Made by a program: the position numbers and the translations under genes
The notes under the pieces: model-generated
Told to the model about the DNA's origin: nothing
Database searches by the model: none
The model's input: only the letters and a program-made list of their open reading frames with translations
Part shown: piece by piece, positions 5,850 to 54,400 of the stretch
Position numbering within the stretch: the first letter of the stretch is position 1
How the letters are laid out: the number at the start of each line of letters is the position of its first letter
IMG/VR virus record: IMGVR_UViG_3300020577_007133
Span: 32,001 to 96,000 of that record
Length of the DNA stretch: 64,000 nt
Source: a virus
Taxonomy: Duplodnaviria; Caudoviricetes
Reading direction: 5' to 3' (one strand)

Positions 5850-5860
5850 TATTTATTGAT

Positions 5861-26094: not shown

Positions 26095-27388
26095 CTAACT
26101 TAAAAACTTTTTTTATATTTTTTTTTTAGATAAAATTAATAAAAAATCTAAACTTTTACTAAATTTGTGATATTTATATATAAGATGATTTATAAATCGT
26201 ATAAATATAGAATTTATCCTAACAAACAACAAGAAGAACTTATATTAAAACATATGGGTTGTTCTCGTTGGATTTATAATTATGGGTTGTCTCGAAAAAT
26301 ACATCATTACCAACAAGTCGGGAAAGGGTTATCCAAATTTGATTTAAAAAAAGACCTACCCGAACTTAAAAAAAATGAAGAAACATCTTGGTTAAAAGAG
26401 GTTAATTCTCAAACCCTACAAGCGTCATTAGAAAATTTAGATAAAGCCTTTACCAAGTTTTTTAAAGATAAAAAAGGATTTCCAAAATTTAAGTCAAAAA
26501 AAGATAACAGACAAAGTTTTAATATACCACAAAACACAATAATTGATTTTGAATCCGGAAAAATAAATTTACCAAAATTTAAAACGGATATTAAAGTTAA
26601 GATTGATAGAGTTTTTGATGGAACAATTAAAACCAGTACAATAAGTAAAACACCAACCGGAAAATATTTTATTTCTGTTTTGGTTGAGTCGCAACAAGAA
26701 TTACCAAAGAAAAAACCATTGAGTGAAAAACAAGCCATAGGAATTGATTTAGGTGTTAAAACTTTTGCAACATTATCAAACGGAATGGAAATAGAAAATC
26801 CAAAACATTTAAAAAAATCATTAAAAAAATTAAAGAAATTACAACGTAAAGTCTCTAAAAAACAAAAAGGAAGTAATAACAGACTAAAATCCGTTAAAAA
26901 ACTAGCAATACTTCACGAGAAAATAACCAATAAAAGAATGGATTTCTTACATAAAACATCACATTATTTGGTTACAAATTTTGATACTTTATGTTTGGAA
27001 ACATTAAAATCCGGTAATATGATGAAAAATCATACATTGGCTCAAGCTCTTAGTGATATATCTATTAGTAAATTTAATGAGATGATTGATTATAAATCCG
27101 AATGGTATGGATGTAATATTTTGAGGATAGGACAATTTGAACCTAGTTCTAAAATGTGTTCTTGTGGTGTTATAAATAAAGAATTAAAATTAAATCAAAG
27201 AGTTTGGACTTGTAATAGTTGTGGAACAACACATAATAGAGATATTCTAGCGGCAAACAATATTAAACACTTTGCTTTTACAAAAAATAATACTGCTGGA
27301 ACGGCAGAAATTTACGCTTGTGGAGATATGAAAGACAATAGTCGGTCAGCCCAAGAAACCCTACAATAATTAATTGTAAGGTGGTTCA
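26095..27388 (+). mobile_element. IS200/IS605-like tnpB-only element 1 (left boundary approximate)
   Basis: tnpB, subterminal hairpin CCTACAAT-AATTA-ATTGTAAGG and right end GGTTCA at 27383-27388; no tnpA. Confidence 0.7.
26185..27369 (+). CDS. tnpB: TnpB RNA-guided endonuclease (IS200/IS605 family, tnpB only)
   Basis: HTH KSYKYRIYPN; RuvC motifs GIDLG, LCLETL, HNRDILAA; Zn finger CSCG..CNSC. Confidence 0.93.
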   Translation: MIYKSYKYRIYPNKQQEELILKHMGCSRWIYNYGLSRKIHHYQQVGKGLSKFDLKKDLPELKKNEETSWLKEVNSQTLQASLENLDKAFTKFFKDKKGFPKFKSKKDNRQSFNIPQNTIIDFESGKINLPKFKTDIKVKIDRVFDGTIKTSTISKTPTGKYFISVLVESQQELPKKKPLSEKQAIGIDLGVKTFATLSNGMEIENPKHLKKSLKKLKKLQRKVSKKQKGSNNRLKSVKKLAILHEKITNKRMDFLHKTSHYLVTNFDTLCLETLKSGNMMKNHTLAQALSDISISKFNEMIDYKSEWYGCNILRIGQFEPSSKMCSCGVINKELKLNQRVWTCNSCGTTHNRDILAANNIKHFAFTKNNTAGTAEIYACGDMKDNSRSAQETLQ

Positions 27389-27408
27389 ATTTATACGAAT
27401 ATTTTGAT
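27285..27408 (+). ncRNA. Predicted omegaRNA (reRNA) of TnpB1 with flanking guide
   Basis: Scaffold overlaps the tnpB 3' end (CTGCTGGAACGGCAG hairpin, GCTTGTGGAGA...GCCCAAGAAACC) up to the right end TTCA; guide would be ATTTATACGAATATTTTGAT; boundaries inferred. Confidence 0.6.
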
Positions 27409-28954
27409 TTAGAACAGTATTATTTACATCGGCTAATAATTGGTTAATACTGGTTTTGGTTGTTTTGGAACCTTGGGTCGCTTCATCCGGTACCATATTA
27501 GAGTGAGGGTGAACGTGATTGTTCATAAAATCAACAATTTTTTCAATTAACTTGATTAATTCTTCACCCCTAACAGAAGAGTACGTTTTTTCAAATAAAG
27601 TATCTCCAACACCAACAAATCTATCTTGAGGAATACCATAAAGGGTATCAGATAAATTAATAATACCTTTTGGACTACCTGAGTTTTGAGATAATAAATA
27701 AACTTTTTGAGCCCCTAATACCCCATAACTAATATCTTCACTTTGTATTTTTGAAGGGGTTATACTTTCTTCTTTTAAATCAGACTGAGGTCCAAATAAT
27801 GGTTTTCCTCCTTTATTTCCGGAAACTAAAAACCAACCTTCCTCTTTTGAGTTATTAAGTTTTATATTGTTGTAGAAACGACGATAATTGATATATTCCA
27901 ACACATCAGGTAATGCGGTTGATGGTGAGAATTTTTTACCGGTTTCGTAGGTTTGTTTTGATGGGGTTACAATAAATGGAAATGCGTTTCTTAAATTCTG
28001 AATGTTATTAACGGTTATACCGGTAAATAAAATGTTTGGTGAATATATTAGTGATATGAAATCATTAATAATTTTCACACATTCAGTAAAAGGTTTACCC
28101 ATAAAAGAAACTGATTCCAATTCGGCACCATAATCCTCACCACTAGTTAAATCTAATATTGTATCAAACTTAAAATTTTGAGTATTAACTTTTGAACTTG
28201 GTTTTAGATTATATAGTTTAACAGAACCGGTAAATGAATCGGCACTCGAGTTTAGTGTAGTAATATCCCAAACAATCATTTTTTGAACCATTTGGATATT
28301 CTCAACTAATCTATATTTTGTTTCTTTTGGTAAATTTGTTTTTGTTTGAGTGAATCTTGTTAATTGTAAAAACGCTCTATTTTGATTTCCAACCGGGAAT
28401 TTATCTTTTGATAATTCTTTTGTTTTTCCGGCACGAATTAAAACTTCATTTTCTTTAACAATAACATCGGCAGTTCCACGACCCAATAAAGCATTATCTC
28501 CCGGTTCCGGAAATACCCCTTTACTTTTATCATTACGATATTCCCCGTCTTGGTTTTTCAAACTCATACCTTGTTTGATTCTATCACCGGTTGCCAAGAA
28601 TTTTTTAGCCCCTTGGTAATATTCAAATGGTGAAGTCATTGGGGATGAAAACGGACCTTGAAGATAAAATTGATTTTTATATGGGTATTTTTTATTCATA
28701 TAAATAATATGAACGTACTCATCTATTTTAGGTGTTTGACTAATATAGAAAGGTAATAAAGGTAAAAAGATTAACGGGTCTTTAGATGTCCATTTATCCG
28801 TCTCTTCATTCCAATCAGGAACTGACGCAATAATATCTTGATAGTTCTTCGTTTCAGGTATAATACGAAGTCTACCTAACATCATCGGGTCTTGGTTGTC
28901 ATAAACATACCCCGGAAATAATATTTGATATTTATTTTCGTTATCTATTGTCAT
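27386..28954 (-). CDS. Baseplate hub/central spike-like protein (gp5/VgrG-type OB-fold)
   Basis: N-terminal DNQDPMMLGRLRI and PKIDEYV motifs like gp5 OB-folds; C-terminal HVHPH resembling spike-tip metal-binding HxH. Confidence 0.65.
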   Translation of the reverse strand: MTIDNENKYQILFPGYVYDNQDPMMLGRLRIIPETKNYQDIIASVPDWNEETDKWTSKDPLIFLPLLPFYISQTPKIDEYVHIIYMNKKYPYKNQFYLQGPFSSPMTSPFEYYQGAKKFLATGDRIKQGMSLKNQDGEYRNDKSKGVFPEPGDNALLGRGTADVIVKENEVLIRAGKTKELSKDKFPVGNQNRAFLQLTRFTQTKTNLPKETKYRLVENIQMVQKMIVWDITTLNSSADSFTGSVKLYNLKPSSKVNTQNFKFDTILDLTSGEDYGAELESVSFMGKPFTECVKIINDFISLIYSPNILFTGITVNNIQNLRNAFPFIVTPSKQTYETGKKFSPSTALPDVLEYINYRRFYNNIKLNNSKEEGWFLVSGNKGGKPLFGPQSDLKEESITPSKIQSEDISYGVLGAQKVYLLSQNSGSPKGIINLSDTLYGIPQDRFVGVGDTLFEKTYSSVRGEELIKLIEKIVDFMNNHVHPHSNMVPDEATQGSKTTKTSINQLLADVNNTVLNQNIRIN

Positions 28955-45203: not shown

Positions 45204-46421
45204 TTATTTAATTAAACTTTTGTACCAAATCGCTCTATCATCGGTTACTTTATTAAGGTCGTATTTATCTTTTACTGTGTTGTATAATCTCTCACCAAGT
45301 TCTTTAATCATCTCAGGGTTCTGAACTAATTTTTTAATGGCTTTTGACCAATCACTATGGTTTCTACTTTCCGGGATTAAGATTGCATTACCTTCTTCGT
45401 TAAACTCTCCATTTTTCAAACAGTGTACTAAATCAATTGTATATGGACCAACTTCTGATGCAATTAAAGCTTTCTTATAAAACCCTGCCTCAATTACTTT
45501 AAGTTGTGATTTCATACGATTAAAGATATGATTTTTAATTGGTGCTAAAGATATATCAAATTTTGAATAATTCATAGCATATGTGTTGACAGGTTTTGTC
45601 CATACTCTGACATATGGTAAATCATTTCCTGATTGATATTCACCTTCTTTAAATTCTAATAAGAATTTTTTATAATCATCTTCGATAGTTCTGTAGTTTG
45701 TTGTGAATATCTCCTCATAACGAGCCCAAACAGTTTCTTCCGGTTTAATATCTCTTTGTTTTTGTTCATTGGTTTGTGGGTTAATTTCCGTTACAGTTCC
45801 TCTTGTATCAAAACCACAAATTACATATTGAATTTTATCGTTAATGTCGTTGTTTTTTTGAACGAATCCGTCTAATAACATTAAATCGTGTAAGTGAGAT
45901 GAGCCACCTAACCAACCAACTCTAATTTTATCTGATGGTGGTGTAGGTTGATTAAATTGTAGTTCTTTTGGATTAATAGCGTTTGGAAAAACAATAACAT
46001 TTTTATTTAATTTTTTAATTTCGTCCGCAAAAATTTGTGTCGTTGTGGTAACATAACTAGCCACCCTTAAATTATTTTTAATTTTTTCATCAATTTTATT
46101 TTGTACTATAATATTATGGATTGGGTGTTCTTTGGTTGGTAACCAATAATCATCTAAATCGATTATAACAATAATACCAATTGATTTTAACCACTCAATA
46201 ATTTGAGTTGACATATCGTAATCTTGACCAATAGTTCTATGAGCGTGAACTATCTGATACTTCTTCCAATATTCAATATTATTTATTTGAGGTTCATAAT
46301 CAATATCTACGTGAAAATCATCCGGATATAGATTTTGTAACATAACGTGAGGGTCAACAGAGCGAAATTTCGAGACTCCTGTAGTATCTGAGGGCAGAAC
46401 TAATACATTAATTTTTTTCAT
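45204..46421 (-). CDS. Glycosyltransferase (GT-B)
   Basis: DLDDYW, GWLGGSSHLHDL, DISLAP and FNRMKSQLKVIEAG motifs. Confidence 0.8.
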   Translation of the reverse strand: MKKINVLVLPSDTTGVSKFRSVDPHVMLQNLYPDDFHVDIDYEPQINNIEYWKKYQIVHAHRTIGQDYDMSTQIIEWLKSIGIIVIIDLDDYWLPTKEHPIHNIIVQNKIDEKIKNNLRVASYVTTTTQIFADEIKKLNKNVIVFPNAINPKELQFNQPTPPSDKIRVGWLGGSSHLHDLMLLDGFVQKNNDINDKIQYVICGFDTRGTVTEINPQTNEQKQRDIKPEETVWARYEEIFTTNYRTIEDDYKKFLLEFKEGEYQSGNDLPYVRVWTKPVNTYAMNYSKFDISLAPIKNHIFNRMKSQLKVIEAGFYKKALIASEVGPYTIDLVHCLKNGEFNEEGNAILIPESRNHSDWSKAIKKLVQNPEMIKELGERLYNTVKDKYDLNKVTDDRAIWYKSLIK

Positions 46422-47166
46422 ATTTTTCTAATATAGTTTTAAGATTATTAGGTTTGTCTAAATCACACTCCCAAATAATTTCTAAATTATAACCATATTT
46501 TTTAATATTATCAACTCTTAAATTATCCTCATCCCAAATTTCTTTAGCTGTCTTTTTCTTATGAGGATGAAAATAATCTTCATCGTATTTATTAGGGTTA
46601 CAATGCCAATAATCACCATTAAATTCAATTATTAAGTTTAATGATTCAATATAAATATCACAAACATATCTACCAACCGAATATGAACCAGTTGGTTTAT
46701 ACTTTAATTTTTTAACTTGTGTTAATAATTTTTTTTCTTTATTAGATACCGAATTTTGTCTTGGGGGGTTTTCAGATATTTTTTTTGAAATTAACTCAAC
46801 TGTTTCTTTGGTATGTGTTTTACCATAAAAAGGATTCATTTTACCTACTTGTAACTTTAACGAACAGGGTTTACATAATGAAGTCCCATTTATTTTTCTA
46901 AAGTGATTTCTACAAGCAATAGCTTTATCTTTTGAGGTTGTTTTGATGTTTTTATTACAACTTGGACATTTACGAGTTACATAATATTTACCACTTTCTT
47001 TTTTAATATCTAATGTAGAACATCTATCCCTTTTTCTAACGAGATTATGTTTGTTTAATACTTTAAGAATTGTAGGTTTTGATAAACCAACTATTTTAAC
47101 AATTTCTAAACTACTTTTTCCCTTCTTATATTCTGAAATAATTTTTTTTTCAGTTTTAATATCCAT
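46408..47166 (-). CDS. Free-standing homing-type endonuclease: HTH, Zn finger, NUMOD3 and Vsr/DUF559-like nuclease domain
   Basis: CPSC..CKPC; NPFYGKTHTKET (NUMOD3); DIYIESLNLIIEFNGDYWH..D..R..IWE; late motif at 47189-47195. Confidence 0.75.
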   Translation of the reverse strand: MDIKTEKKIISEYKKGKSSLEIVKIVGLSKPTILKVLNKHNLVRKRDRCSTLDIKKESGKYYVTRKCPSCNKNIKTTSKDKAIACRNHFRKINGTSLCKPCSLKLQVGKMNPFYGKTHTKETVELISKKISENPPRQNSVSNKEKKLLTQVKKLKYKPTGSYSVGRYVCDIYIESLNLIIEFNGDYWHCNPNKYDEDYFHPHKKKTAKEIWDEDNLRVDNIKKYGYNLEIIWECDLDKPNNLKTILEKYEKN

Positions 47167-47230
47167 AACGTAATCCTTTTTTATGATAATAAATATCAGA
47201 GGTTTAATCAAAAGGAAACTTTTTTACATT

Positions 47231-47260
47231 AAAAAACCCCAATCGATTAAGATTGAGGTT
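47231..47260 (-). terminator. Intrinsic terminator
   Basis: Minus strand AACCTCAATC-TTAATC-GATTGGGGTT-TTTT. Confidence 0.7.
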
Positions 47261-47280: not shown

Positions 47281-47895
47281 TTAAGAGATTTTTTTTATCT
47301 TAGTAACCTTACCTTCAAATATATGTTTTCCAACTTTAAAAGAAAAGACTTCATTTGATTTTTGTGTTGATTCTGTTAGAATTCCATTTTCTTGTAGAAC
47401 TTCCTCAACAACTTCTTTAAGTAAAGATTTTAATTGATTAACATTTGGTAATACTTGTTCTTGTAATGGTTGTCTATTTTGTGTTGGTTGATTGTTTTTA
47501 GGTTTTGTTCCCATCAATCTCGATGCCTTTTCAACTAAGTCATCAGACAAAACTGTATTACCACCCATTGAGCTCGGTTGTTCTATTGGATGTTCAATCA
47601 TTAATCGTTTAATTGCATCCGGTAATTTTGATGCCATAACTCTATCAGATGTTAGAGGTTGTGGTATATTAATTTGACTTGGAACTGATGATAAATAAGG
47701 TTGTGTTACATCTGATTCTTGTAATAATTCTTGTGGAATATTATATCTACTTGATACAGGTTCAAATGATTCTACTTCAGGAATATTATATGTTGCAGCT
47801 GCGGTCATATCTCCTGACCTTGGCATATGATTATGTTTTTCCATTATTTGTTTGGAAATCATTAATTTTTTAATTAAATCGTCTTCACTATTCAT
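47281..47895 (-). CDS. Hypothetical protein
   Basis: 204 aa ORF, last gene of a minus-strand operon. Confidence 0.7.
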   Translation of the reverse strand: MNSEDDLIKKLMISKQIMEKHNHMPRSGDMTAAATYNIPEVESFEPVSSRYNIPQELLQESDVTQPYLSSVPSQINIPQPLTSDRVMASKLPDAIKRLMIEHPIEQPSSMGGNTVLSDDLVEKASRLMGTKPKNNQPTQNRQPLQEQVLPNVNQLKSLLKEVVEEVLQENGILTESTQKSNEVFSFKVGKHIFEGKVTKIKKIS

Positions 47896-47897
47896 AA

Positions 47898-48512
47898 TTA
47901 TCTATTTTGTGTTTGTCTGATGATGTCCGCAATTTGAGGTCTTAATGAGTTTTTCTCTTCATCAGATAATTTTTTATTGGTTTTAGATTCAATACCCGCA
48001 TAAATTCTTCTATACGCTTCTGCGGCTTTTGATAAATCAACACCTTCTAACCCACCTTGTCTTTGGATATCATTTAACATTTGATTTACCACTGATGTTA
48101 TAATATTTGTATATGGTGATGATTGTTGATTATCAAACACTGCGTTAATTATAACTCTAGTCATACTTTTATCACCATTAAAATTATATCCCGGTTTCGG
48201 AGTTGTAAATTTTTCACCTGAAGGTTTAAAAGATTGTATTTTATCTACTCTAAATAACCTCCAACCAGGTAAGGGTTGTTCTCCTTTATATGCGGTGTGT
48301 GAAGCACCTTCGTCGTCCCAAGCTCTTAAAACAGGGTTTCCTGCTTTAGAGTATCCGAAACAAACAGGTTCAATACTTCTTAAACCTCGTCCTCCGGGTT
48401 CATCACCATCATAATAAATGATAACCTTATCTTTGTTTTTAATAGCATTAACAATCGAATCGATTGATGCTATTTCTAAAATAAGGGATTTTATGGTGTT
48501 GTAAAGTTTCAT
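47898..48512 (-). CDS. Stand-alone WYL-domain protein
   Basis: AIKNKDKVIIYY...RSIEPVCFG...LRAW...WRLFRVDKI matches the WYL pattern; no wHTH domain. Confidence 0.75.
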   Translation of the reverse strand: MKLYNTIKSLILEIASIDSIVNAIKNKDKVIIYYDGDEPGGRGLRSIEPVCFGYSKAGNPVLRAWDDEGASHTAYKGEQPLPGWRLFRVDKIQSFKPSGEKFTTPKPGYNFNGDKSMTRVIINAVFDNQQSSPYTNIITSVVNQMLNDIQRQGGLEGVDLSKAAEAYRRIYAGIESKTNKKLSDEEKNSLRPQIADIIRQTQNR

Positions 48513-48808
48513 TATGCACTTGGAGTTGTGTAAGGTGCGTTTGGTTTATATTCATTAATAACTATTTCAGAATTTCTTTCTTGAATATCTTGAATAGCTC
48601 CTGCTTGTTGATTATAAACATCTAAAAATCCTCCGGTACCTTTACCTTGAGCATCTCCGGTTGCCAATGCGTCAGGATTTACGGTCGAATATTCGTTTGA
48701 ATTTTTTTTATAATCGTTTTTTGGGAACAACATAGCTCTTTGCATATCGGCAATTGCTGATAAATCGTTTGATGGTTGTTCAAAATTTAATGGTTCATTT
48801 ACTGCCAT
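48512..48808 (-). CDS. Hypothetical protein
   Basis: 98 aa ORF, translationally coupled. Confidence 0.65.
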   Translation of the reverse strand: MAVNEPLNFEQPSNDLSAIADMQRAMLFPKNDYKKNSNEYSTVNPDALATGDAQGKGTGGFLDVYNQQAGAIQDIQERNSEIVINEYKPNAPYTTPSA

Positions 48809-48810
48809 AA

Positions 48811-49281
48811 TTATAATATTTTTTTCATTAATTCGTTTATTCTTTTCAGATTTTCGGTAATTGCCGTATCATATTTATTAATTGTTGAGTTATGATTTTG
48901 ACTTGGTCTATTCATACTAACAATACCGTCTTTTTCGTGTGGTTTAATATGTTGGTTTGGTAGTACTTCGGATTTGGCGTTTTTAGCCGATTCCAATGAA
49001 TCTCTATCACCTTTTAAAGTATTTTCAACCCAATTTCTTACATAATGACCACCATTTAAAATATGAGGAATTTCGTCTTGATGACCATTGAAATTATCAA
49101 ACCAATTTTTCATACGTTTTAATTGTTGATAAGTTATTTCACCTTTCTCACGTAAATCTTTATTTCGTTTGAAACCTTCGGTTGTCTCATCAACTTCTCC
49201 AACTGCTTTGAAACATTTGTCTAAATATTCAAGAACATCTTGAGGAACCGGATATGTTTTACCATATAATTCACTATTCAT
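48811..49281 (-). CDS. Hypothetical protein
   Basis: 156 aa ORF ending ITENLKRINELMKKIL. Confidence 0.65.
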   Translation of the reverse strand: MNSELYGKTYPVPQDVLEYLDKCFKAVGEVDETTEGFKRNKDLREKGEITYQQLKRMKNWFDNFNGHQDEIPHILNGGHYVRNWVENTLKGDRDSLESAKNAKSEVLPNQHIKPHEKDGIVSMNRPSQNHNSTINKYDTAITENLKRINELMKKIL

Positions 49282-50110
49282 TATCCGATGATTTTAAAAC
49301 TTTAATTAGTTCATTTATACTAATACCTTCTTTTTTTGCCATATTTTTAATGGATTTAAGATTTTTCTTTAATATTTTACTAACACTAACATCTTTTCTA
49401 ACAACATCAGAATCTGATTTTGATTTTTTGGTTAAAATATCTTCAACCATTTTTCTCATCATTTGTTTTTGTTGTTCTTCGAGTGAATTTTTTTCTGATA
49501 ATCGTTGTCTTAATTCACCATCTTCAACTTCTTCTTTTGGTAATTTACCAAATTGTTTTGCTCGTTCAACAGGATTTTCAACACCCATCTCTTTTAATTT
49601 TTTGACGGTATCATTGTAATCCATATCTTTAGTTTCTTCGTATCCAAATGCCTCAGAGTAATCCACTTCATTTAATACATCTTCACCTTCAGTACTTTCA
49701 CCATAATAAACTCTATAACCTCTCATTACCGGGTCATTAGTTGTTCTTGCAGCTTGAACCGTTTGGTCCATAGTTTTCTTAGGTGCTAAATATTGATTAT
49801 AACGAGGGATTCTTGACCCCAACATATTACCATCTTCATCTACCAATTCGTCAATTTCTTTTTTAGATTTAATACCTTTTAATTTTTTATCTAATGCTTT
49901 TTTGGTAACTTTTGATTTTGTTTTCATTGCACTTGAAACAACTCCCTTAACTTTTTTCTCATCTTTTTTATCAAAATCAATTTTCTCATCTGATTTCCTT
50001 GATTCGGTTATAGTTTCGGCCACATTATAATATAATGATATTTTATCACCTCTATCTTTCAAATAGAAATAACAATTGTTTTCAAAATATTCAGTATTAA
50101 AATTAATCAT
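49274..50110 (-). CDS. Hypothetical protein
   Basis: ATG 50110, 16 nt beyond the TnpB2 right end, preferred over TTG 50137. Confidence 0.65.
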   Translation of the reverse strand: MINFNTEYFENNCYFYLKDRGDKISLYYNVAETITESRKSDEKIDFDKKDEKKVKGVVSSAMKTKSKVTKKALDKKLKGIKSKKEIDELVDEDGNMLGSRIPRYNQYLAPKKTMDQTVQAARTTNDPVMRGYRVYYGESTEGEDVLNEVDYSEAFGYEETKDMDYNDTVKKLKEMGVENPVERAKQFGKLPKEEVEDGELRQRLSEKNSLEEQQKQMMRKMVEDILTKKSKSDSDVVRKDVSVSKILKKNLKSIKNMAKKEGISINELIKVLKSSDNE

Positions 50111-50126
50111 ATCAACTTTTTCTATT

Positions 50127-51353
50127 TGGACTACCAATATTATTTGGATTCTGAAACATTATTCAGAAGTTTAAACGTTTCATCGATTGTGCCAACTGAA
50201 GTTGGTCTTATTTCATCTCCACGTCTGTTATCGTCAGTCCCTGACGATTTATGTTTATATCCTTCTTTAAGGATGTTTATACTTGCGTTTAAATCTCTAT
50301 CTAATTTTATTTTACAAGATGGACAAGTCCATTCTCTAATATCAAGTTTTAGATTTTGATTAATGTATCCGCAACAATTACAAGTTTTACTGGAAGGAAA
50401 AAATCTATCAATTTTAACTATTTCTTTATCATTCCATTCCGCTTTATATGTTAAAAGTTCTATGAACTTACTCCACGAAGCATCTGAAATATGTTTTGAT
50501 AATTTATGATTTTTAATCATTCCTTTAATGTTTAAATCTTCCAATACAATTACATCGTATTTTTTGATTAATTCTGTGGATACTTTGTGCAAATTATCTA
50601 ACCTAGAATTGGTTATCTTCTTATAAATATTTGCAACTTTTAATTTTTCTTTTAAATAACGATTTGACCCATAAGTTTTTCTACTTAAATGTTGTTGATG
50701 TTCTTTAAGTTTTCTTTCATAGGTTTTTGTATATCTATTATTTTTGTATTTAAATCCTTCGGATGTAATCACAAAATCCTTTAAACCCAAATCAATTCCG
50801 ATTGATTTTCCTGTTTTTGGTAAGACTTTATGAGTTGTTTCTACCAAAATGGAAACAAAATATTCATTTGTTGGTGTTTTTAATATCGTACAGGATTTAA
50901 TTATTCCGGAGAAACTTCTTGATAAAATTAAATCAATCGGTTCTTTAAATTTAGGTATTTTTAGTTTTCCATCTTCTAACTTAACAAATTGTGGAACTTT
51001 AAAACTATTTTTAGATTTTTTTGATTTAAATTTTGGGAATTTTGTTCTTTTTTTAAAAAAACCATTATAAGCATCGTCTAAATTTTTTAACGATGATTGT
51101 AATGATTGAGAATTAATTTCATTTAACCAAAAATATTCTTTTTGTTTTTTTAATTCGGTTAATGATTTAGAATTATCGGAATAATTTAAGTTTTGTTTGT
51201 TATTCTCATATTCTTTTTTTCTTTCATTAAGAAAATAATTATAAGCAAACCTAATGGAACCAAAATGTTTGTTTAAAAGTACTTTTTGGTCTTCATTCGG
51301 TTTTAATTTATATTTATATGATTTTAACATTTATTCTATTTTCTTTATATAGA
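50127..51353 (-). mobile_element. IS200/IS605-like tnpB-only element 2 (left boundary approximate)
   Basis: omegaRNA-like hairpins at the 3' end (ATCGTCAG-GGA-CTGACGAT; CCAAC-TTCA-GTTGG; TTCTGAA..TTCAGAA) and right end GGTAGTCCA at 50135-50127; no tnpA. Confidence 0.65.
50140..51330 (-). CDS. tnpB: TnpB RNA-guided endonuclease (IS200/IS605 family, tnpB only)
   Basis: KSYKYKLKPN HTH; RuvC motifs GIDLG, VLEDL, DRDLNAS; Zn finger CNCC..CPSC. Confidence 0.93.
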   Translation of the reverse strand: MLKSYKYKLKPNEDQKVLLNKHFGSIRFAYNYFLNERKKEYENNKQNLNYSDNSKSLTELKKQKEYFWLNEINSQSLQSSLKNLDDAYNGFFKKRTKFPKFKSKKSKNSFKVPQFVKLEDGKLKIPKFKEPIDLILSRSFSGIIKSCTILKTPTNEYFVSILVETTHKVLPKTGKSIGIDLGLKDFVITSEGFKYKNNRYTKTYERKLKEHQQHLSRKTYGSNRYLKEKLKVANIYKKITNSRLDNLHKVSTELIKKYDVIVLEDLNIKGMIKNHKLSKHISDASWSKFIELLTYKAEWNDKEIVKIDRFFPSSKTCNCCGYINQNLKLDIREWTCPSCKIKLDRDLNASINILKEGYKHKSSGTDDNRRGDEIRPTSVGTIDETFKLLNNVSESK

Positions 51354-51432
51354 ATAAATATCATAAAAAATAGAAAAAACCTAATTTAATTACAGATTAT
51401 TTTATTTTTAACTATTTATTGTAAAAAAGATT

Positions 51433-54400
51433 GTGAGTCAGAATATAAATCAATATCCAAGACCTAATTGGGGTATAAAGTTAGCGATTGATGCTAGTGA
51501 TATGACCTTAGTTAATGATGAGAGAAACTATAATGAAGAAGTGGTTTTCTCACCATATCTTATTGCTCAAACATACGGTAATAGATTACCTTTTTCTTTT
51601 GATACTAATAATTCAGATTCGGTACAACCATTAGATTTGAGTTACAAACAATATGATTTTGATAATGTTTTTGTATCAACGAATTATTATAACCCGGACA
51701 ACATTGATTTAAGTTGTTTAACCGCAAACACATCTTGTGATATCGGTTTAACAGGTATTGACAATGGTTTGGTTACGGATATGACGGGTCAAACAATAAC
51801 ATTTACGAATGGAATTAATGATTTCACCAAATTTGATAGATTATCGTTTGATAGAAGATTAAAAATGTTCCAAGTTACGGGATATACCAGTTCAAATGTT
51901 AGATTCTCGGGATTTGATAAGACCATATTATATGAGGTTGTAAGTAAAAACGATTCTGTTGGGTATTATCACGAATTATATGGTGGTTTCTACCAAGGGT
52001 TTTATAAGTTATTTGGTTATGATTATGAAATTTTCCCTGAAAGAATGAATAAGGGATGGTCGGTTGAGATGTTATTAAAACCAAGATTAACTAACGAATA
52101 TGGACCATCTTCAGGTGAAACAACATTAAACGAAATATACCCGGAAAATAAAGATATTTTCTTTTATTTTGGAACTCGTGCTGAGAATAAATTTTATCAT
52201 TATGCTGATGGACATCCAAGATGTTTAACTGGATATAATAGAGTAACTTCAGAGGTTACCGGATTAACAACTTGTGCTTGTTGTGATAATTCTGTGGTTA
52301 ATAGTAGATGTATCTATGTTTATCCACCAAGACCAACAGATAAAGATTGTAATGGATGTATAACTTGTGGATGGGAATATAAAATTCACGATTGTCCGGT
52401 TGTTACCCCAACTCCAACACCAACCCCTACACCGTCACCGACACCGTCAAATTGTGAACCTATTACCGCTTGTACCGAAGGTTGTACTTGTTTAAATTGT
52501 ACAACTTGTAATGAATGTAAAGTGTGTGATACTTGTAATTTAACACCGGGTTCGGTTGAGAATACTTGTGAGAGTGACCCGTTATATGATTCGATGTCTA
52601 ATGTAATTGCATTAAAATTATGTGGTGACCCAAAAAACCCACAAATCGGGGTTAGATTATTAAGATTTACCGGAGATTGTGTAACAACCGGTAGTTGTTC
52701 AACAACAGGTATAACATATTCAACAGGTTATACAATAGATAATTATTGTACTCCAAACGGAATATATGATTATTGTGAGAATATAAATCCGGATTATTTG
52801 GAAAGCGAACATTGGTTCCACGTAACGGCCGTTTGGGAAAGATATACTTGGTTAGATACTTGTGATTTATGGTATAGAGGTGGATTAGGAGATATAACTG
52901 AAACTAAATACTTAGATGGTTTAGCGGAAAATTCTGTTGCACTAATTACTGTACCATATACTCAAACTTGCGGAACTGACCCACAACAAATCGATTTGGT
53001 TAATCTAAATGAAAAATGGTTAATCGATAAAGATTTCAGAAAAGGAAGATTAAAAATTTATGTTAACGGAAGGATATTCCATACATTCCAAGACATTGAA
53101 GAAATAATACCGAGAGGTTTAAATACCGATAAAGAGAAACAGGTTGGAGTCCCATTTAATATTTCTTGGGGTGGTGGAACACAAGGTTTAAGAGAGAATT
53201 TAACATTCTCATCAACAACCGGAACAACATATATCCAAGACCCAGAATCTTTACCAACAAATGACTTAAGTGGTACCACATATAGTGGTTTAACTACTAA
53301 TATATTATTGGAACAAAATTTCGGTGGAACATTTGAGGGGGGGGTATCTCAATTCAGAATGTATGTATCACCATTATCAGCACCTGAGGTTAAACATAAT
53401 TTCAACTTATTAAAAGATACTTTTGATATGTTTAATCCGGATTGTCCTGATTGTGGTGAAAATTTCTGTCCGGTAAATGATTTTAGTTACGAAATTAATG
53501 GTGAAACCCCAACACCTACACCTACGATAACAGAAACTCCGACTAATACCCCAACTCTAACCCCAACACAAACACCGACAAATACTCTAACACCAACACC
53601 TACAATAACAGAAACTCCAACTAATACACCAACAATGACACCCACGCCAACTCTTACGTCAATCCCGCCACAATTAACCCTTATAGTTGATTATACACCA
53701 GGCTCTATCATTGCTTCATATTCATTATTTTTAAATCGTTTATTTACCGAAGAGATAAATGTTACTTTTGAAAATATTTTAGATGTTTATAGTGGCAACC
53801 CAATTACGATAGTTACGGGTGTTACTATTAATTTAGGTAATTTTTCAGGACAAACTATTGTAACAATAAATGAAGATTACAATAACTTTAATGGTAATGT
53901 TAGTTTTAGTCAATTATCTGGTACTCCAAGTGGAAGCACATATACAATTGAGTATATTAATCCATTTCCCACACCAACACCAACTATAACCAATACTCCA
54001 ACCGAGACTCCAACTCAAACACCGACCGAGACTCCTACAAATACGCCAACACCAACGGTGACTGAAACTCCTACAAATACACCTACTAATACACCTACAC
54101 CTACTGTAACTGAAACGCCAACTAATACACCAACTCCAACTGTAACAGAAACTCCAACAAATACTCCTACTCCAACAGAAACTCCTACACCTACTGTAAC
54201 TGAAACTCCTACGCCTACTGTAACCGAAACTCCGACAATTACACCTACCCCAACAGTAACGCCAACTCCAGGACTATCACAAACACCTACACCTACAAAT
54301 ACTGTAACTCAAACCCCAACTAACACCCCTACAAATACTGTAACACCAACAATGTCGTCACAAACAGTTACATATTCAACATCAACATCTATTATTGCAA

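Follow-up and report, generated by a model that had tools for sequence, protein, structure and literature searches.

Genes and features at the tnpB locus

The window, i.e. the whole stretch of 64,000 nucleotides that was analysed, corresponds to bases 32001-96000 of a 104,772-bp IMG/VR virus record (completeness rating ~35%) and has a G+C content of 31%, with 95% of it coding and 4.5% non-coding. The relatives of the record include complete genomes of 308-318 kb, and the phage is therefore a jumbo phage. A megablast search with the tnpB locus against GenBank phages gave zero matches. In the window, tnpB lies between a divergently read gene for a 1413-aa protein and a five-gene operon that is read in the same direction as tnpB itself (Table 1). 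The first minus-strand terminator-like site found in a search between tnpB and the operon and onward is that at 47260-47235, i.e. past the entire operon. Beyond it, at 46408-47211 on the minus strand, lies a free-standing NUMOD3/HNH-like endonuclease gene with a match to a homing-endonuclease PHROG, which has a TATTTAT of its own at 47189, so that its true start is probably an ATG near 47158.

Table 1. Features of the tnpB locus (positions are those of the window)
Feature	Positions	Strand	Basis or remark
Terminator-like hairpin, first downstream of the tnpB promoter	47235..47260	-	after the fifth operon gene
Five-gene operon	47281..50110	-	ORF list; tightly packed genes; native promoter displaced
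Predicted guide (16-nt operon leader + start codon)	50107..50126	-	DNA immediately 3' of the conserved right end
omegaRNA scaffold, overlapping the tnpB 3' end and ending at the right end	50127..50290	-	31-copy covariation; 5' limit approximate
tnpB, intact, 396 aa, ISDra2-like predicted RNA-guided nuclease	50140..51330	-	Pfam, structure match, dN/dS
Truncated left part of the element	51331..51410	-	aligns with the left-end interior of full copies; no left-end hairpin, no TAM
Element-borne promoter core TATTTAT	51354..51360	-	T-rich box upstream, ~51373-51381; 23 nt before the tnpB ATG (51330)
Retained phage flank with the divergent promoter of the 1413-aa gene	51411..51432	+	TATTTAT 51413-51419; position conserved in 74 related loci

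The tnpB ORF contains HTH_OrfB_IS605, OrfB_IS605 (RuvC) and Cas12f1-like zinc-ribbon TNB domains (Pfam, E 8e-17 to 6e-24), and the ISDra2 TnpB structures 8BF8 and 8EXA match its product with an E-value of 8e-79. In the alignment to 8BF8 the RuvC Asp/Glu/Asp residues (D191/E278/D361 in ISDra2) are conserved at all three positions. The dN/dS ratio relative to five family members is 0.14-0.26, a value that averages over the history of the family, and by this measure tnpB appears to be under purifying selection. A Y1 (HUH) tnpA (PF01797) had zero matches in the 104.8-kb record, which represents ~35% of the genome. The description in the initial annotation of an intact tnpB without tnpA is thus borne out for the record.

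A second tnpA-less TnpB element occupies 26096-27389 on the plus strand of the window (tnpB at 26185-27369), its protein being 45% identical to the first. It has the same T-box and TATTTAT promoter upstream, has no left-end hairpin, and occupies a site that is empty in relatives, while the last three bases of its right end form the TGA stop codon of a convergent gene (27386-28954) that ends in TAA in the relatives.

Right end, scaffold and guide

The right end of the element (GGTAGTCCA, 50135-50127) is separated by 16 nt (50126-50111) from the operon's ATG at 50110. In an alignment of 31 copies, representing ~30 distinct ones, some 170 nt are conserved before a common GTAGT[T/C]CA and similarity ends exactly there, from which it follows that the predicted right end and the start of the guide (50126 onward) are correct. 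Both the position of this end and the identity of guide and operon leader had been proposed in the initial annotation and agree with the alignment.

The scaffold upstream of the right end is predicted to fold into hairpins at 50248-50230, 50206-50191 and 50168-50149, followed by a shortened terminal hairpin at 50147-50134. RNAalifold, run on the 31-copy alignment, predicted two hairpins with compensatory changes in 13 of the 18 predicted pairs, and the same alignment shows another two covarying hairpins; the single-sequence fold has a z-score of -2.5. The closest copy of the family, L077, resides in a related jumbo phage and encodes a TnpB that is 90% identical; its scaffold is nearly identical to that of the window except for the terminal hairpin, which is reduced to 4 bp in the window copy and likewise reduced in the sister copies L091 and L094. 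An Rfam scan of 49900-51500 returned no family at E <= 1, and no second, solo scaffold was found in the record. The guide has a single full match in the 104.8-kb record, near-matches being no commoner than in the control.

The promoter before tnpB and the truncated left end

The motif TATTTAT occurs 78 times in the window, 21 of these within the 4.5% that is non-coding, and most of the non-coding copies are located 4-32 nt upstream of a start codon on the same strand, the portal gene included. The motif therewith behaves as a real signal, judging by its placement, and its presence before the portal gene fits late expression, without being proof of it. For a subset of the motifs (at 5850, 6420 and 31464) the distance to the start codon is no more than 4-5 nt, so that the transcripts may be leaderless or nearly so; sites with this same spacing are also found with the sister TnpB copies L083 and L081.

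The initial annotation took the TATTTAT at 51354-51360, which indeed stands 23 nt before the tnpB ATG, to be the native promoter of the phage. That reading does not hold. Across many unrelated contexts, copies have a T-rich box and then (G/A)ATATTTAT at 23-24 nt before the tnpB ATG, downstream of the left-end hairpin, and this fixed placement in unrelated surroundings means that the motif belongs to the element and travels with tnpB. Its two-box layout is the same as that of the native promoters of the window.

What the site looked like before insertion can be read from 74 loci related to the first operon protein. In all relatives with upstream sequence, the 1413-aa gene and the operon are divergent and ~55 nt apart, with no TnpB between them (all 74 loci are empty), and this spacer holds two divergent TATTTAT motifs that are 13-15 nt apart, an arrangement that is kept even at 41-50% identity of the flanking proteins. 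In the window the divergent motifs are 52 nt apart. Homology to the relatives' flank stops at ~51411, just past the divergent motif, and the next 80 nt correspond to the interior of full elements. The left-end hairpin (loop TCTTTAG, present in 16 other copies), the TAM and the native promoter are all absent from the window copy, and TATTTAT does not occur between right end and operon ATG, in keeping with the initial observation that the five-gene operon has no such motif of its own. Because hairpin, TAM and native promoter are gone, a TnpA could presumably neither excise nor move the copy, and no other recognisable promoter is left to the operon. For tnpB, guide RNA and operon alike, the element promoter is then the sole recognisable one, which the operon would share through read-through.

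A simple deletion between the native and the internal TATTTAT repeats was considered as the cause of the truncation and rejected, since it would leave ~13 nt between the divergent motifs rather than 52. The left-end hairpin is also missing from L091, L094, L081 and L090, the proteins of L091 and L094 being only 65-68% identical to the window TnpB; loss of the TnpA-binding ends thus seems recurrent among the phage copies.

The family and its TAM

A set of 53 IMG/VR loci encoding TnpB relatives was compared, and the flanking genes of the window are found in none of the other 52. Sixteen distinct copies carry a left-end hairpin with an 8-bp stem, the loop TCTTTAG and a tail ATGAA..., ~100-165 nt upstream of tnpB. 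At 15-19 nt 5' of the hairpin foot, 15 of the 16 read TTTAT and one reads TCTAT; in seven of the 16 the full TATTTAT is present. The TAM of the family, as deduced from these flanks, is TTTAT, i.e. the core of the motif that serves as phage promoter. The most direct case is L077, where the order is TATTTAT, element, 19 nt, ATG, compared to TATTTAT, 19 nt, ATG in its relatives; the comparison with these empty relatives shows that the element starts directly after TTTAT and stops at the common right end.

The closest cellular relative found, L232, lies in Algoriphagus resistens (NZ_LMXN01000014.1, 51700-57788) and forms a complete element of the IS605 type: its Y1 tnpA is divergent, its left-end hairpin is of the same kind, its flank reads TTTAT and its TnpB is 61% identical. 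Since the bacterial element also has the TTTAT flank, TTTAT is a property of the family and the TAM did not evolve for the phage promoter. The TnpB proteins of the phage copies are 65-90% identical to that of the window, versus at most 61% for the cellular copies found, and the relationship to L232 suggests that the phage lineage derives from Bacteroidota, which is perhaps also the phylum of its hosts. A TTTAT-type TAM, which had been suggested from the window, is therefore supported both by the copies with a left end and by the Algoriphagus relative. The accompanying suggestion that the phage promoter supplies the TAM stands in part: the family TAM is the promoter core, and L077 sits between a TATTTAT and its 19-nt leader, whereas the TATTTAT at 51354-51360 is borne by the element and is not a TAM.

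About half of the sister copies are located 1-40 nt upstream of a gene on the same strand, while the rest are not. Survivorship alone would enrich for intergenic TTTAT sites, which are mostly promoters, in a genome that is 95% coding. Insertions are also not always clean. In L084 (2880-4225) the native promoter adjoins the left end and only 2 nt separate the right end from the ATG, the leader of its relatives (L132-L163) being ~30 nt long; it seems that the leader was deleted, or that the L084 phage has a promoter with short spacing, and this missing leader was counted against the explanation preferred below. For L083 the empty site was not recovered, its relatives being too distant and lacking the N-terminus.

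The element-free allele and signs of spread

In the relatives, the operon-side TATTTAT stands 13-17 nt before the operon ATG, and the 15-nt leader of the closest ones matches the last 15 positions of the 16-nt leader in the window at 14. The expectation that the empty site would read TATTTAT followed by the sequence of the guide is hereby largely borne out, in relatives rather than in a conspecific phage. The flanking protein of the nearest relatives is at most 82% identical, and their leader is one base shorter than that of the window. Read from TTTAT, the guide is out of register with these leaders by one base, and for this reason the relatives at hand would not be expected to be cut by the TnpB and guide of the window; the alternative register has two seed mismatches and the wrong TAM.

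Exact searches of IMG/VR and of metagenome contigs for the guide-matching allele did not find a conspecific empty allele. The IMG/VR search gave only an unrelated chaperonin-like gene, while the search of metagenome contigs gave a single contig (L227, from ENA, 2091 nt) in which the same allele is occupied rather than empty. Compared with 49222-51309 of the window, this contig has 0 differences over 49698-51309 (1612 nt), followed by 24 differences in 476 nt (5%). The identical stretch comprises tnpB, the scaffold and the leader, continues for 413 nt into the first operon gene and breaks off sharply at ~49698; by our own arithmetic, ~18 differences would be expected in it under a uniform rate. 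Such a boundary is of the kind that co-conversion around a homing element would leave, although it concerns one contig and one side, and mosaicism is common in phages. In three relatives with a completeness of at least 91%, a search for TnpB gave no match at E <= 0.001, due to which both TnpB genes of the window look like recent arrivals.

Interpretation and rival explanations

Following these results, the stretch from 50127 to ~51410 is best explained as a tnpA-less, left-end-truncated ISDra2-like IS200/IS605 element that may act as a homing cassette at a promoter. We regard this explanation as a whole as probable; its anatomical part is held with considerable confidence, while active homing is a tentative proposal for which the balance tips slightly to the negative. 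It is known that TnpB cleaves TAM plus guide at the donor joints (PMC8612924), and non-restorative homing, with plasmids or co-infecting phages as recipients, figures as a proposal in a 2026 review (PMC13565253), for phages as a theoretical one. In the preferred explanation, the element lineage is resident in a clade of ~300-kb AT-rich phages, where the family inserts 3' of TTTAT, the core of the TATTTAT promoter motif of these phages. Insertions thereby often fall between a promoter and the operon leader, which makes the guide RNA carry that leader, and each copy brings its own phage-type promoter before tnpB. Most likely, the element originally inserted at the promoter that was native to the five-gene operon; native promoter, TAM and left-end hairpin were lost afterwards, leaving the element promoter to serve tnpB, guide RNA and, via read-through, the operon. 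During co-infection, TnpB and its guide could cut element-free conspecific genomes at TTTAT plus leader, upon which recombinational repair would copy the cassette into the cut genome, i.e. non-restorative homing in the manner of a free-standing homing endonuclease gene. Between co-infecting phages, such homing is plausible; transcription, read-through and the 'late' timing are presumed. Counted against this explanation are the negative outcome of the searches for an element-free conspecific genome, the register of the nearest relatives, the single visible boundary of the identity island in L227, the terminal hairpin of 4 bp, and the loss of the left end, which could be simple decay.

Such decay is indeed the basis of another explanation, in which the locus is an immobile IS remnant without a current nuclease role, kept only for the promoter that drives tnpB and the operon. 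The missing left-end hairpin and TAM, the eroded right-end hairpin and the lack of a tnpA in the record are all in agreement with it, as are the absence of the element from all 74 relatives and an operon without any other promoter motif. Against it stand the intact ORF of 396 codons with its catalytic triad and a scaffold that is practically the same as that of L077 outside the terminal hairpin, and an identical copy is present in a second sample (L227). The low dN/dS points in the same direction, be it that it is averaged over family history. We consider decay unlikely, while giving it appreciable weight.

The other two explanations fare worse. According to the literal version of the initial annotation, the TATTTAT at 51354-51360 is both native late promoter and TAM, and no more than the 23 nt before the tnpB ATG form the left end of the element. 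In its favour, the motif conforms to the native type, the flank at the right end continues as the operon leader, and the divergent-promoter spacing in the sister copy L091 is compatible with this version. It is nevertheless very unlikely, as it leaves the 52 nt between the divergent motifs at odds with the spacing in the 74 relatives, and as the alignment places the 80 nt before tnpB in the interior of full elements, whose own copy of this promoter occurs downstream of the left-end hairpin. Finally, the element could be a domesticated TldR-like regulator, or an anti-competitor weapon, directed at the operon leader or at other phages without copying itself. Its guide equals a leader that is close to a promoter, and promoters are where TldRs act (PMC10705468). 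Unlike in TldRs, the RuvC triad is intact; the resident site has no TAM beside the guide match and should hence not be bound, there is no second target in the record, and the available relatives are out of register. This last explanation is the most improbable of all.

Comparison with known systems

The locus is a variant of a known selfish element and not a new system. With ISDra2 TnpB (PMC8612924; 8BF8, 8EXA, 8H1J) it shares the protein architecture, a scaffold over the 3' end of tnpB and a guide taken from past the right end. Both ISDra2 and the family of the window have a pentanucleotide TAM at the left flank, TTGAT in ISDra2 versus what the flanks indicate to be TTTAT in the family. The window copy differs from ISDra2 in that tnpA, left-end hairpin and TAM are absent, that it is carried by a jumbo phage of the lytic type and that a phage-type element promoter precedes tnpB; two structural parts of a complete IS200/IS605 element (the left-end hairpin with its TAM, and TnpA) are thus missing, while the nuclease module is kept. 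The tnpB-only IS1341-type elements and the Algoriphagus element have in common with the family the right end GGGTAGTTCA and a left-end hairpin with a TTTAT flank; unlike the window copy, the Algoriphagus element possesses a Y1 tnpA, which is divergent, and its tnpB is not preceded by a TATTTAT promoter.

T-even phages have free-standing homing endonuclease genes, responsible for intronless homing and marker exclusion (e.g. SegF; PMC13565253), which resemble the locus in being selfish genes for nucleases, placed in the intergenic space of conserved phage genes, with a phage-type promoter, and in having an island of identity that reaches into the flanking gene. In contrast to these, recognition by the window element would be RNA-guided, and what marks a genome as self would be the insert that it carries instead of a sequence polymorphism. 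TldRs likewise have guides toward promoter-proximal DNA; they differ from the window element, of which the catalytic residues are intact and the resident target is without TAM.

Significance

In bacteria, TnpB is established as a nuclease that maintains transposons. What it does in lytic phages has hardly been studied, the literature search having yielded no more than speculation and a single theoretical reference to homing into co-infecting phages, and no paper was found in that search on TnpB elements lodged at phage promoters. The locus and its sister copies provide a concrete, testable case, with TTTAT as the TAM, the operon leader as the guide and promoter core plus leader as the predicted target. 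Since the window copy is a natural TnpA-incompetent derivative, any spread of it must be driven by TnpB. If active, the compact scaffold with its shortened terminal hairpin may also interest TnpB engineers.

As a speculative generalisation, which we hold to be unlikely, phage-resident TnpB/guide-RNA cassettes would be RNA-guided homing endonuclease genes for which the promoter core TTTAT is both landing pad and TAM, with the carried promoter sparing the operon, and with the loss of end and promoter locking the cassette in. For the phage of the window itself, the arrangement of the locus illustrates how a selfish element may take over the promoter of host-phage genes.
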